Assembly: GCF_030384885.1 (NCBI RefSeq)
Contig: NZ_CP128613.1
From: Escherichia coli
GTDB taxonomy: Bacteria > Pseudomonadota > Gammaproteobacteria > Enterobacterales > Enterobacteriaceae
DNA length: 64,000 nt
Reading direction: 5' to 3' (one strand)
Shown here: piece by piece, positions 11,701-21,640 of the stretch
Layout of the letters: each line of letters begins with the position of its first letter
Numbering within the stretch: position 1 is the stretch's first letter
Made by a program: the position numbers and the translations under genes
Notes under the pieces: generated by a model
Told to the model about the DNA's origin: nothing
Databases searched by the model: none
Seen by the model: the letters and a program-made list of their open reading frames with translations, nothing else

Positions 11701-11793
11701 CGTTTTGCTCGCAAACTCGTCACTTGAACAAAATTGCACGGACAGGGACTGTTAAAATGCCAAATTTCCTGGCATCATGGCAACCATCTGAAC

Positions 11794-11883
11794 GGAGAGA
11801 TGCCGGAGCGGCTGAACGGACCGGTCTCGAAAACCGGAGTAGGGGCAACTCTACCGGGGGTTCAAATCCCCCTCTCTCCGCCA
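11794..11883 (+). tRNA. serU: tRNA-Ser
   Basis: 90 nt GGAGAGATGCCGGAGCGGCTGAACGGACCGGTCTCGAAAACCGG...CTCTCCGCCA, long variable arm typical of tRNA-Ser. Confidence 0.9.
11870..11883. repeat. attL core: serU 3' end (CCCTCTCTCCGCCA)
   Basis: 14 bp identical to the copy at 34279-34292. Confidence 0.6.
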
Positions 11884-14216: not shown

Positions 14217-14459
14217 ATGATTGATGAATTTCATGTGATGTATATGTATAAAAAAATCCAAGCAGAAGCCGCAACCACTGACATCAAAACACTTGAACAG
14301 CTTTTGAAAAAGTTCAGGAGCGTGGTTAACGAACGTCGTGAAGAATACTATCAGGAGATTGGTGAGAAAAAAGCGCGTAAGTTGAAAATGAAAAGAGCAC
14401 AAAGATTACTTGAGAAAATGGTATGTGACCGGGTTTCGCCAGAAGATCTCATTGACTGA
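14217..14459 (+). CDS. Hypothetical small protein
   Basis: ATG at 14217 preceded by aaggag RBS; charged, helical-looking 80 aa. Confidence 0.35.
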   Translation: MIDEFHVMYMYKKIQAEAATTDIKTLEQLLKKFRSVVNERREEYYQEIGEKKARKLKMKRAQRLLEKMVCDRVSPEDLID

Positions 14460-14831
14460 TAAGTGTTCAACCAAAATTTTTTAGAATGTAGTATTACGAC
14501 CAATCGCAATAACATGTGGCATTTATGTATTCAGAAATCTGCTGATATGGAGGTCAACAGTTGTCTCGTGCATCTGCAACCCCCGTGGGATAATGGTGGG
14601 TGTTAACATCTGATTATCAAGAGAATGAGCATTCCCGAAGAAAACATAGAGTCTTTAAACGCGGTTTCGTTTGGTCATTGATGAAGATCTTCACGGGTAT
14701 GGCAGCCTATTTGTTTGTGAAAGAAAACATTATTTTTCAAATGGTTAGTGTAAATGATGATAACACGTCATGTGATCATAACTTATTGATCTTCTAGTTT
14801 TTTTGTGCATAATCCATAATATGAGTACTTA

Positions 14832-16682
14832 GTGGAACTTATGATGGATTTTTTATATCAGGAATTAGCAAAAGCAGGGATAGCACTTTCTGTCAAAGAG
14901 CTTTTCACTCGCGTGGTATCTGCATGGGATAAAAAAAATTTAAGTGGGAAGCAACTTGTTAGAGAGTTGACTGGTTCAGAGGTATATCTGAACTATCTTG
15001 AGAAACATGTAGCAAGAGTGGTCCGACTAAGAACGATCCATAGTGCTGATTATGATATTCTGCTGACTAATTTATATCATCCATTAGGTATCACATCTTT
15101 ATCTCCCGGTGCAACTGAACATAAAGTCAATGACGGCTTCTATATAGAAAATCAACATATTACTAATATCATAGGAATAGCAGGGCAAGGGAAAAGTACT
15201 ATTTTAAGAAAACTGTTCATAGAACAAATAAAGAATGGAACAAAAATACCATTTTTTATTGAATTACGTAGAACTGGAAATGATGGGATCATTAAATCTC
15301 TTGAAAATACATTAATCAATCTTGGATTATACCCGACGTCCCAAGCAATTGATGAATTGTTATTTAGTAATAAAATATCTTTAATGTTAGATGGATTTGA
15401 TGAGGTCAACTCAAAGCAAAAAGATATTTTACTAAGTGAGATATTGATGCTAAACGTAAAATATGCATTGCAAGTAATAGTTACGTCGAGACCGGGTACA
15501 ACTGTTTGCAATGAACCATCAATTGTTAATTATAAAGTCGAAAAACTTAAAGAAAAAGACATACTGGCAATTATAGAAAAACTCAATACTAACAATGGAG
15601 TTATAGACAAAGAACAATTGCCGAAAATAAAAGATACAATTAAAAATAACAAAAATCTTGTTTCTGTGATGACTTCACCTATTCTGGTAACGCTTTTTCA
15701 TGTCTGTTATCCATTCATGGATATTATCCCCAATAATACAGTAGAATTTTATTCAAATCTGTTTATGACATTATATCTTCGACATGACAAAGTTAAAAAC
15801 TTTGACCGCGAAAAATCTTCCTCTTTAAGTCATAATGAAGCATATGACTGTTTCTGTACATTATGTTTTTACTCAATTTATACGAATAATCATGAATTTA
15901 CAGAGCAGTCACTAAATGAATATACAGAAAAATCAATGAAGTTAAAGGGACGGTTTGGTGAATGCAAAGCGGAGTCATTAGCTCAGGATTTTATTAATGT
16001 AACTTGTTTAATTCAGCGAGAAGGCTTTAATAAATATATCTTTATTCATAAATCGATTCAAGAGTATCATGCAGCAGAATTTATAAAAAATATATCATCA
16101 GATCAGAAAAATAAATTTTATAGTTTTCTTGTTGAAGATATTAAAAAAAATGAATTACGATTTTCTAATGTTATAGTATTCCTTAAAGAAATAGATGTCA
16201 TAGATTGTGCTAAATTCTTAATTATTCCACTGTGCGAATATTTTGGCGTTTCAAAATGGAATGCTTTGACCCCATTGGAATACAAGGATTTATTACGTAC
16301 ATTTTTCTCCGATACCTACATTCATTTATTTAATGACATTAATGATAAAGATATAATGGGGTTCAGTTCATTATCAGGGGTTAGTGGCTGGATGCAATTA
16401 TTAGATATCAGCGGCAATAATGATTTATATACGCCTGTGTTTGAAGTGTTAATAGATGAATCATTGTCAAGTGCGAATTTTAAAGATGTTGTAACCAGTC
16501 AAGATCGGCAAATGGTAAAAGTTTCATTTATGAAGGCAATAATACAATTAGGGATTGAAGACAAAATAGTTGAAGTGTTTATCAAAAATATTAAGAAAAT
16601 ACATAACGAAGTATATTGTGAAGCCATTAATAAAGTAAATAACGAGGATGTTAGTATTAAGGAGTTCTTTGATCTGATTTAA
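14832..16682 (+). CDS. NACHT-family STAND NTPase (bacterial NLR-like), short form
   Basis: Walker A GIAGQGKST, Walker B LMLDGFDEV, sensor-1 VIVTSRP; about 115 aa N-terminal and about 300 aa C-terminal regions unassigned. Confidence 0.7.
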   Translation: MELMMDFLYQELAKAGIALSVKELFTRVVSAWDKKNLSGKQLVRELTGSEVYLNYLEKHVARVVRLRTIHSADYDILLTNLYHPLGITSLSPGATEHKVNDGFYIENQHITNIIGIAGQGKSTILRKLFIEQIKNGTKIPFFIELRRTGNDGIIKSLENTLINLGLYPTSQAIDELLFSNKISLMLDGFDEVNSKQKDILLSEILMLNVKYALQVIVTSRPGTTVCNEPSIVNYKVEKLKEKDILAIIEKLNTNNGVIDKEQLPKIKDTIKNNKNLVSVMTSPILVTLFHVCYPFMDIIPNNTVEFYSNLFMTLYLRHDKVKNFDREKSSSLSHNEAYDCFCTLCFYSIYTNNHEFTEQSLNEYTEKSMKLKGRFGECKAESLAQDFINVTCLIQREGFNKYIFIHKSIQEYHAAEFIKNISSDQKNKFYSFLVEDIKKNELRFSNVIVFLKEIDVIDCAKFLIIPLCEYFGVSKWNALTPLEYKDLLRTFFSDTYIHLFNDINDKDIMGFSSLSGVSGWMQLLDISGNNDLYTPVFEVLIDESLSSANFKDVVTSQDRQMVKVSFMKAIIQLGIEDKIVEVFIKNIKKIHNEVYCEAINKVNNEDVSIKEFFDLI

Positions 16683-16893
16683 TATTTGAAATATGTTTTA
16701 ATTAAGTTGATCTGTTTTTATCTGGTTAACTATACAGAAATATCAAGGCACTATTACTTGGCAACAACCCATATAAAAAGGTATGTCCGTAATAAGATTT
16801 GAAAGAGTATTAATAGATTAATATGTATAATATTATTTTGTAACGAGGCTGACATAGTGAGAACAGGCAACCTCGGATCGTATACATAAAATT

Positions 16894-17298
16894 TTAGATG
16901 GCAAAGTCTTCCAGTGTCTTACCAGCTTCGATAGCAGCAGCGATTGCTTTAGGAGTACGGCCCTGACCCGTCCAAGTCTGCTCATTACCGTTTTCATCTG
17001 TATATTTGTATTTAGCAGGACGAGGAGCACGAGTTGATTTGGTTTTAGGCTGGGATGAACCAACTGAAGCGAGTAGTTCTGTAGGATCGATACCGTCTTC
17101 TAATAATTTCTGGCGGAAGGCTTCAAGTTTAGCCTGACGTTCTTCTTGTTCTTTACGGGCTGAATTTTCTTCCTCACGGCGATCTTCAACGATTGTGGTG
17201 AGTTTTTCCAGCATCTCTTCCAGAGTTGCCAGATCTGTTTCACGAGCCTGTGCGCGAAGTGTACGAATATTGTTCAGTGCCTTAAGAGCTTCACTCAT
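16894..17298 (-). CDS. hfp: H-NS family nucleoid-associated protein (Hfp/H-NS paralogue)
   Basis: C-terminal DNA-binding motif [10 protein letters not shown] and H-NS-like coiled-coil N-terminus; 134 aa. Confidence 0.8.
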
Positions 17299-17454
17299 AG
17301 TATGTCATCCGGTGTTTTAAAATGGGCGATTAATAAAAATAATGCTTACGGTGCTGTTGGAAAAGTCAAAAAAACAGTCAGTAAATAATATAGTAAACAT
17401 TATCGTTTAAGCAATCTAATACATCTCATTTCACACGAATAGCATAGGGTCGTT

Positions 17455-17934
17455 TTACAGAGATATTTTCCTGCGCTTGTGGCTTGATGGTTCAAACTCT
17501 GACGAGATACGAGATAGTTGCTCAAGACTCTGTTCAATTGAACGCTGGAACTCCATAGCGGCTTCTGTACGCTGTTTTATGACCAAGGCAACTATTTCTT
17601 CATCAGTCTTTTCTGAAATAGCCTTACGGTATAACACGCGTTCGTTAAATAAATCGAGATTACCAGTTGATCTCGCTGATGTGTTAGCTTTTGAACTGCT
17701 GATAGGATTTAACTCGTCAATAAAGTATTCAATAAGAGATCCTCTCTTTTTTTCAAGTCTGCGAAGTTCGGTATGTGCAGACTTAAATTTTTGAGCCTTA
17801 ACCAATGGAATGTCATCGGAACGCAGTTTGCGATATTCATTTCTGTATTCTTCTATAGAAATATGATTTTTTAGTTCTTTGACTGTATTTACGTATTCGA
17901 TTAAATCACTGTTGTCTGTTTTTACTTTTCTCAT
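17455..17934 (-). CDS. Hypothetical coiled-coil protein
   Basis: 159 aa ORF upstream of hfp on the same strand. Confidence 0.4.
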   Translation of the reverse strand: MRKVKTDNSDLIEYVNTVKELKNHISIEEYRNEYRKLRSDDIPLVKAQKFKSAHTELRRLEKKRGSLIEYFIDELNPISSSKANTSARSTGNLDLFNERVLYRKAISEKTDEEIVALVIKQRTEAAMEFQRSIEQSLEQLSRISSEFEPSSHKRRKISL

Positions 17935-17997
17935 AAGAATACCTCGTTAATAAATGATGGATATATTTATATTACGAGATATGGTGTTAGTGTCAAA

Positions 17998-18045
17998 TTA
18001 GCTCTTTAGCTCTTTAGCTCTTTAGCTCTTTAGCTCTTTAGCTCT
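17998..18045. repeat. Perfect octanucleotide tandem repeat (TTAGCTCT)x6
   Basis: Six exact copies counted directly, 64-111 bp upstream of the 17934 start codon. Confidence 0.95.
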
Positions 18046-18126: not shown

Positions 18127-18684
18127 TTAATTTTTGTTATTCACTGTTTTCTTTTTGTCCTTCAAGTAATAAGTTTTCATGAAAGTTAAACGATCACCAT
18201 TAAACATATAGTCTGGATTAATAAAATAATAGTTCTGTATCATGGTCTCAGCAATAAATTTCTTGTCAGCAAGTTCTTTCATCCCTTTGAAATATGTCGT
18301 TCTTGATATTTTTACAATCTCTTGATCAACAATATCGAATGACATTAATATCGTATCTGTATCTTTATTGTCTCTAATAGCAAGATACAGTATCTTAAAT
18401 ACTTTCTTACCTGATGAGGATAAACCCTCAATAGCTGATACGCCATCCACATAAAGCTTCACGAACTGTGTCTTGTCTACTTCCATTGACTGAAAGAAAC
18501 CACCATGCCCAACCTGTTCTCCTGTATTTTCATTTACTACGGCTAAGCGGTCTTTTCCTGTTGTGATACGTCTGATACCTGTTTTTGTATGTATATTTGT
18601 ATCATTAAGGAATGGGTTTTTTACATGGCGAGGTAGACCTCTTCTTGATTTCTTTACTTCCGTTTGTATCTTATTTTCTATCAT
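18127..18684 (-). CDS. Hypothetical protein
   Basis: 185 aa ORF, basic N-terminus; no motif recognised. Confidence 0.4.
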   Translation of the reverse strand: MIENKIQTEVKKSRRGLPRHVKNPFLNDTNIHTKTGIRRITTGKDRLAVVNENTGEQVGHGGFFQSMEVDKTQFVKLYVDGVSAIEGLSSSGKKVFKILYLAIRDNKDTDTILMSFDIVDQEIVKISRTTYFKGMKELADKKFIAETMIQNYYFINPDYMFNGDRLTFMKTYYLKDKKKTVNNKN

Positions 18685-21432: not shown

Positions 21433-21640
21433 ATGTTATCTGGTTAATAATTTTCTTATGTAATATTATCTATGCCATCTGGCTATGTTTTCAATTGTTT
21501 TAGTTCTCGACAACTGTTTTTATATCCAGTATGATTTTACTCGTATCCGGCAGAATATTTTTAGATGCTGTTTCATGAACTCCGGTTGAAAGGTTTATTC
21601 TCTACTTTTGGGAATAATAGTTAAAATGGAGATAAGTGTA

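Follow-up and report, generated by a model that had tools for sequence, protein, structure and literature searches.

Three names, hnsB, hfp and hns2, are in use for a single, distinct and horizontally mobile clade of H-NS paralogues (PMC7544231). The primary accounts describe Hfp/H-NSB/Hns2 from Escherichia coli 536, CFT073 and 042 (Williamson & Free 2005, via PMC7074111; Mueller et al. 2010, PMC2814080). In strain 536 the protein is 134 aa long, is encoded on a 23-kb serU island of 38% GC, and was published as being 57.7% identical to H-NS and 52.2% identical to StpA; it forms heteromers with H-NS via its N-terminal domain and is stable in cells devoid of H-NS (PMC2814080). Expression of hfp is repressed by H-NS and autorepressed by Hfp (PMC2814080, PMC7074111), is high at 25-30 C and in stationary phase and is low at 37 C (PMC2814080). 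Single deletion of hfp has little or no phenotype, and hns-hfp double mutants show phenotypes in growth at 25 C, capsule, bgl and aggregation (PMC2814080). The targets that Hfp adds to repression by H-NS, namely bgl, the K15 capsule and fimbrial genes, are mainly visible in hns mutants (PMC2814080, PMC7074111). Purified Hfp binds DNA weakly in vitro (PMC2814080). In S. Enteritidis the ratio of H-NS, StpA and Hfp is about 30:10:1, and deletion of hfp there leaves hns and stpA expression and hilD all unchanged (PMC7544231).

Hfp has the two-domain architecture and the QGR DNA-binding motif of H-NS and StpA, and differs from both in being accessory and island-borne and in carrying Thr in place of Cys21. 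It is also of low abundance, and its temperature profile is the opposite of StpA's (PMC2814080, PMC7544231). Another full-length H-NS paralogue on an AT-rich mobile element is Sfh of the IncHI1 plasmid R27/pSf-R27, which is thought to buffer the titration of H-NS (PMC7544231); unlike Hfp, it belongs to the HppH clade, is plasmid-borne and is highly expressed. Both the serU islands and the ROD21-like (EARL) islands have been described as excisable and mobilisable, and most of them carry Hfp (PMC7544231, PMC7074111, PMC10763509).

The serU island and its hfp gene

The locus studied here lies in a 64-kb stretch of E. coli DNA, referred to as the window. The features that frame the island and its hfp gene are:

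11794-11883: serU, tRNA-Ser(cga), attL
11884-34292: serU island proper, 22.4 kb, delimited by direct repeats, integrase and a gene order as in 536
16894-17298, minus strand: hfp (= hnsB/hns2), full-length third H-NS paralogue, 134 aa, from the ORF, both H-NS Pfam domains and identity to 536 Hfp
26888-28369: MobQ relaxase, serU island gene
29713-31759: PilS/PilV, serU island genes
32897-34114: tyrosine integrase, serU island gene
34279-34292: attR repeat, copy of the serU 3' end

A stretch of the serU 3' end forms a 14-bp direct repeat with copies at 11870 and at 34279, the second just past the integrase and before zinT, and the island is therefore placed at 11884-34292. The island has a GC content of 0.377; the left core flank (5279-11883) and the segment at 49-64 kb stand at about 0.50, and the first 7.7 kb to the right of the island at 0.437. 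To the left lie tRNA-Asn (10727-10802), mtfA and then serU, and several E. coli chromosomes match bases 5279-11883 with 100% identity. The island opens with DUF6387 and AlpA, and the order serU, DUF6387, AlpA, two small ORFs, an 80-aa ORF, a cargo gene, hfp, DUF4756 and a RepL-like gene is common to 536 and the window, as is the subsequent series of lipoproteins, MobQ relaxase, pilin/PilV and integrase. Insertion at tRNA-Ser, flanking repeats, an integrase of its own, a size of ~22-23 kb, ~38% GC and the joint presence of hnsT and hfp all mark it as a serU island. The RepL-like/DUF4756/hfp module was found in 651 of 5426 complete E. coli genomes, invariably on the chromosome.

The serU island is an integrative mobilisable element related to the EARL islands. 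With ROD21, ICEKp258.2 and IE3 it shares a backbone of DUF6387, an AlpA-type RDF, short and long H-NS homologues, DUF4756, a RepL-like winged-helix protein (wHTH), MobQ relaxase, type IV pilus genes and TIR proteins. EARL islands are, however, recognized by a conserved integrase/RDF module and a tRNA-Asn site, whereas the serU island is inserted at tRNA-Ser and uses another integrase (PMC7074111), and it is therefore a relative of the EARL islands and not a member.

The translated hfp ORF carries the Pfam domains Histone_HNS_N (PF22470; residues 1-78, E 5.4e-25) and the Histone_HNS C-terminal DNA-binding domain (PF00816; residues 95-134, E 2.8e-17). In PDB comparisons its N-terminus was aligned to the H-NS 1-83 structure 3nr7 (3.2e-25) and its C-terminus matched 2lrx and 2l93, which are C-terminal structures of StpA and H-NS; the DNA-binding motif TWTGQGRTP, of the Q/RGR minor-groove type, is present. 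Against the NCBIfam equivalogs the protein scores 178 bits for H-NS (cut-off 211) and 163 bits for StpA (cut-off 202), and since it stays under both cut-offs it is a third paralogue. It is identical in 134 of 134 aa to Hfp of strain 536 (ECP_1927, WP_001287374.1; NC_008253 1966487-1966891), which places it in the Hfp clade, delimited by more than 90% aa identity to 536 Hfp (ABG69928; PMC7544231) and by being neither a core H-NS nor a StpA orthologue, as the NCBIfam scores indicate. At the nucleotide level the gene is 99.0% identical between the window and 536. The core H-NS and StpA genes fall outside the 64 kb, and against K-12 sequences Hfp is ~62% identical to H-NS and ~53% to StpA. As in 536, CFT073 and 042, hfp follows DUF4756 on the serU island, opposite the H-NST side. 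The ORF is thus an already characterised gene in its published island, and the paralogue as such adds no novelty; the earlier note, which had seen in it an H-NS-family paralogue on an AT-rich island, was correct on both counts.

Several observations concern the rest of the window. Beside tRNA-Asn, at 10368-10667 (minus strand), lies an N-terminal (Arm DNA-binding) integrase remnant, which an asnT island, since lost, probably left behind. The best-matching E. coli genomes are not collinear with the window over bases 1-5278, and an ORF of 1347 aa at 1208-5251 (minus strand) contains ten Big_1/invasin repeats and resembles part of a YeeJ-like inverse autotransporter. Between hchA and a porin gene, a patch of low GC (~35-40%, 42806-45235) holds ORFs of 465, 138 and 125 aa, of which the first two gave no match in Pfam and all three gave none in PADLOC; this patch may be a small uncharacterised insertion.

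Defence genes and cargo slots

Putative and predicted defence genes of the island, together with the truncated H-NS that precedes the first of them, are:

14217-14459, plus strand: H-NST, 80-aa truncated H-NS, oligomerisation domain only (Pfam Histone_HNS_N, PF22470, 1.4e-11)
14832-16682, plus strand: NACHT NTPase, 616 aa, putative single-gene defence (Pfam NACHT 3.8e-10)
21608-23705, plus strand: type I Thoeris, ThsA (SIR2-SLOG) and ThsB (TIR), by PADLOC and Pfam
21608-23077, plus strand: ThsA (PADLOC 8.9e-203; Pfam SIR2_2 and STALD)
23094-23705, plus strand: ThsB (PADLOC 1.1e-85; Pfam ThsB_TIR)
31967-32797, minus strand: TIR-domain protein, 276 aa, PADLOC candidate system PDC-S35 (PADLOC 6.5e-68; Pfam CAP12-PCTIR_TIR 2.3e-37)

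Defence genes had also been claimed as neighbours of the paralogue, and this holds. The NACHT gene is convergent with hfp at a distance of 211 bp; PADLOC 2.0 matched no model to its protein, and we infer a defence role from its family and context. Thoeris lies 4.3 kb from hfp and, with ThsA adjoining ThsB, is clearly of type I, and the PDC-S35 TIR gene adjoins the island integrase. In 536 the slot of the latter is occupied by a different 1.8-kb gene, and TcpC/TIR/macro genes are found elsewhere in the 536 island.

Comparison across islands shows how these genes relate to hfp. Homology between the window and 536 ceases precisely at the hfp stop codon, identity being 55% over the following 200 bp, and the 3' DNA that is the NACHT gene in the window is instead DUF6404 in 536. 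The interval concerned, the hnsT-hfp slot, spans 14460-16893 in the window, 4838-7882 in the related island L002 and 7372-9817 in the Salmonella locus L078. It holds DUF6404 in 536, ATCC 25922 and others, a PD-T4-6-like Ser/Thr kinase in E. coli D7 (3.3e-47), and small ORFs only in EARL-type islands. In ROD21, SLATT and CD-NTase genes (SEN1994/SEN1995) come next in locus numbers after the H-NS-like SEN1993, a placement that follows the numbering (PMC10655114). A second slot further along the island contains Thoeris, ComEA or DUF2971/PDC-S31. The NACHT gene itself had no match in 5426 complete E. coli genomes; a Salmonella protein 98% identical to it in aa sequence occupies the same slot after H-NST (L078), and its homologues in Serratia and Citrobacter, 64-70% identical, lack H-NS-family neighbours and are solitary genes. 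The defence genes are interchangeable cargo in backbone slots and not dedicated partners of hfp. Because the contents of the slots change between islands on a fixed backbone, the finding of hfp close to defence genes, a recurrent pattern among the islands examined, reflects a cargo hotspot.

On its other side the slot is bordered by H-NST. No C-terminal H-NS domain was found in the 80-aa protein by Pfam, and it is 91% identical to the 536 copy. Ala16 is essential for H-NST, the Val16 form of UPEC being inactive, and Arg60 and Arg63 have a part in DNA binding (PMC3897749); Leu30 has been cited as important (PMC7074111). The window protein has A16, L30, R60 and R63, against V16 in the 536 copy. 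Given that it retains the residues reported as necessary for activity, it is probably an active anti-silencer beside the silencer Hfp, encoded directly upstream of the NACHT gene. The earlier note made no mention of H-NST, at 14217-14459, which is a known H-NS antagonist and the anti-silencer of this island.

The hfp upstream region and its 8-bp repeat

The region 5' of hfp comprises, in order of increasing distance:

17299-17710, minus strand: hfp promoter region as mapped in 536 (-70 to -412; TSS -339 and -87; PMC2814080), 412 bp 5' of hfp with 93.7% identity between window and 536
17368-17374 (-76 to -70 from the ATG), minus strand: poly-T tract in the hfp promoter/5' region (poly-A on the plus strand), read from the sequence
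17455-17934, minus strand: DUF4756 gene, just upstream of hfp (Pfam DUF4756 9.1e-65)
17969-17996, minus strand: predicted sigma-70 promoter of DUF4756, TTGACA-16-TAATAT, 10/12 match
17998-18045, minus strand: hypermutable 8-bp microsatellite (AGAGCTAA)6 (TRF, perfect x6, score 96)
18127-18684, minus strand: winged-helix protein annotated 'RepL', SEN1990-like (Pfam RepL 2.6e-05)

DUF4756 adjoins hfp in every related locus with hfp that was examined, and in the exceptional L082 it is kept with a hypothetical gene in place of hfp. It has 969 homologues; among the 120 listed, all are at least 84% identical and those with a source name are all from Enterobacterales. The RepL-like gene lies upstream of the 8-bp repeat on the same strand as hfp, and its likeness to SEN1990 of ROD21, a predicted wHTH dispensable for island replication (PMC10655114), consists in a shared RefSeq 'RepL' annotation. 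In 536, hfp is described as monocistronic, transcribed mainly from -339 relative to the ATG and to a minor extent from an RpoS-type start at -87 (PMC2814080); the main start maps within the DUF4756 coding sequence. A terminator scan found no minus-strand site, including between the RepL-like gene, DUF4756 and hfp; the hfp 3' spacer folded no better than shuffles (z 0.15), and Rfam gave no RNA family in 14.0-19.7 kb. The promoter scan was not enriched overall (21 hits against 22.8 in shuffles), and only the 10/12 site of DUF4756 is used, as a prediction; its sequence is conserved in L001, L002, L004, L005, L010 and L018, and the match in every related island examined.

Two length polymorphisms are present in this region. 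The poly-T tract measures T7 in the window, T8 in two islands, T9 in ATCC 25922 and T11 in 536, the last two strains having identical Hfp and DUF4756 proteins; by its position, it is a candidate better placed than the 8-mer for tuning hfp. The second is the microsatellite to which the earlier note had drawn attention as lying upstream of the paralogue. It is indeed there, reported by TRF as a perfect (TTAGCTCT)x6 at 17998-18045, though at the promoter of DUF4756, its nearest target: it precedes the hfp ATG by 700-747 bp, is separated from hfp by the DUF4756 gene and falls outside the hfp promoters mapped in 536. On the minus strand the layout is GAGAGAAAC (AGAGCTAA)x6 T TTGACA-16 nt-TAATAT ... 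GAGG ... ATG(DUF4756), so that a single base separates the array from the -35 hexamer of the predicted promoter. It is intergenic, and a stop in every frame each 24 nt means that no ORF crosses it. The 536 locus differs here in having an extra gene and no 8-bp array 5' of DUF4756. Copy numbers were as follows:

Window: 6 copies, the reference
GCA_904842275.1 (L086/L090): 5 copies, 0 mismatches in 6.5 kb, one 8-bp unit being the sole difference
Metagenome ERZ28643599 (L087/L091): at least 7 copies, two scaffolds, each with 1 mismatch in 3.5 kb
GCA_022907975.1 (L088) and ERR9390370 (L089): array incomplete, contigs begin within the array
L005, L010 and L018: 4, 5 and 6 copies, respectively, pure, in islands 84-92% identical
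L002-type islands: imperfect 2-copy form, ~96% nt identical in the RepL-like/DUF4756/hfp module
L001-type islands: no array, ~95% nt identical
536: no array, other gene inserted there, diverged
Sampled complete E. coli genomes: span constant at 513-514 bp in 14 of 14 full-length matches

The scaffolds of ERZ28643599 break inside the array, with at least 55 nt of repeat at their ends. Variation of the array was seen only through exact-protein look-ups of the DUF4756 and RepL-like proteins of the window. The fixed span, by contrast, comes from a spread selection of 60 complete E. coli genomes, and its constancy in all 14 full-length matches means that the array is not general to hfp islands. A scan of the whole collection for three copies of AGAGCTAA returned 73 loci, mostly unrelated environmental arrays, with only L005, L010 and L018 homologous, and a scan of viral contigs for the 8-bp repeat found nothing. 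The array is real and far beyond chance, and in this island lineage it changes faster than point substitutions accrue. To our knowledge E. coli is not noted for repeat-based phase variation, and an 8-bp repeat that changes length between otherwise identical islands is unusual for it. The nearest likeness is with the promoter-proximal TAAA repeats at nadA of Neisseria meningitidis, a contingency locus in which a tandem repeat just 5' of the -35 likewise varies in copy number among near-identical strains; the array of the window differs in its 8-bp unit and in residing in E. coli. As in a contingency locus, copy number differs between otherwise identical sequences (5 against 6, and at least 7), but the array lies neither in an ORF nor between -35 and -10. 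That the 8-mers are iterons for the RepL-like protein was considered and rejected as a general feature, since islands with a closely related RepL-like gene (~93-96% nt) lack them.

There is an even chance, in our judgement, that the array is a slippage-prone relic with no regulatory role, left at a junction between DUF4756 and the RepL-like gene into which cargo is inserted. This junction holds a 681-bp gene in 536, a 792-bp gene in L082/L083 and CoiA with another gene in L085, with conserved sequence picking up again at AATTTGACAC; L002 carries a likely 2-copy proto-repeat, ATAGCTAAAGAGCTAA, and L001 none. Mismatch repair corrects 8-bp loops poorly, and the instability of the array may therefore be neutral. 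Against such a relic stand the perfectly pure arrays in four lineages whose flanks have diverged by 8-16%, which require continual turnover or selection, and the constant position of the array end, always one base from the -35 hexamer.

Proposed silencing of the island and its cargo

Published work on the identical protein of 536 places Hfp in the H-NS silencing network, and to that extent bears out the earlier note (PMC2814080, PMC7074111). The reading that we favour, with a probability of about 0.75, is that hfp is a horizontally acquired third paralogue and a backbone gene of the serU island that acts as an auxiliary or 'stealth' silencer, and that the defence genes are swappable cargo. In such a role Hfp would add H-NS-like capacity for ~22 kb of AT-rich DNA and would help H-NS to coat an island of 31-38% GC, defence cargo included; the NACHT and Thoeris genes, at 31-33% GC, would be natural H-NS/Hfp substrates if judged by base composition only, and the island's own H-NST could counteract silencing by H-NS and Hfp. 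Being scarce and a weak DNA binder in vitro, Hfp may contribute negligibly as long as H-NS is there. The high-affinity H-NS motif published by Lang et al. (TCGATAAATT, at most 1 mismatch) had no site in the island and is not used as evidence. A literature search for control of Thoeris or of serU-island defence genes by H-NS or Hfp returned only general statements that H-NS can repress defence genes. The likelihoods we attach to this reading, to a relic array and to the switch discussed below refer to statements that are not mutually exclusive.

A possible but rather unlikely alternative is that Hfp serves mainly the maintenance or transfer of the island, by silencing integrase, RDF or relaxase or by protecting host fitness on acquisition, as for Sfh of R27, and that its adjacency to defence genes is incidental. 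The constancy of hfp, DUF4756 and the RepL-like gene in a backbone whose defence genes are swapped is in line with this, as are the excision and mobilisation described for the Hfp-bearing EARL and serU islands and the stealth function documented for the plasmid paralogue Sfh (PMC7544231). On the other hand, the cited literature on Hfp and EARL islands reports no effect of hfp on excision or transfer, and such a role is compatible with co-silencing of the cargo and overlaps the auxiliary silencer that we favour.

We consider it improbable that the repeat works as a switch of the kind suggested in the earlier note. In a model of this kind the array would set Hfp dosage through a DUF4756-hfp transcript and so toggle the silencing of defence genes, giving phase-variable immunity. 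What speaks for the switch is that the array is hypermutable, with 5, 6 and at least 7 copies in islands otherwise 0-1 base different over 3.5-6.5 kb, that arrays of 4-6 copies have stayed pure in islands whose identity is only 84-92%, and that the array touches the -35 of a conserved, strong-looking predicted promoter on the hfp strand. For hfp to be affected, transcription would have to read through from the DUF4756 promoter, and as no terminator is predicted from the RepL-like gene through DUF4756 to hfp, read-through into hfp is possible; in ROD21, deletion of the RepL-like gene tended to raise the downstream gene, a hint of an operon (PMC10655114). However, an array outside both the -35/-10 spacer and any ORF cannot give a classical on/off effect by changing copy number, and with three or more copies at least 24 bp beside the promoter stay constant. 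The monocistronic transcription described for 536 hfp from -339 and -87 (PMC2814080) and the lack of the array in most hfp islands, with a fixed span in 14 of 14 sampled matches and an inserted gene in 536, likewise argue against the switch.

We give very little credence to a wider version, in which the backbone brackets the defence slot with the anti-silencer H-NST and a silencer module (RepL-like wHTH, DUF4756 and Hfp) while the array varies Hfp/DUF4756 dosage from cell to cell, and we know of no precedent in E. coli for a repeat-driven contingency locus of such a kind; if it were true, costly abortive-infection genes (NACHT, Thoeris) would be expressed heterogeneously, as bet-hedging immunity.

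With Hfp read as an auxiliary silencer and the defence genes as exchangeable cargo, the modest interest that remains lies in the hypermutable repeat and in the slot between hnsT and hfp. In the small number of islands compared, defence or defence-like genes recur in this slot, between a silencer and an anti-silencer, and for this reason the islands offer a convenient natural system in which to ask whether xenogeneic silencing gates anti-phage immunity.
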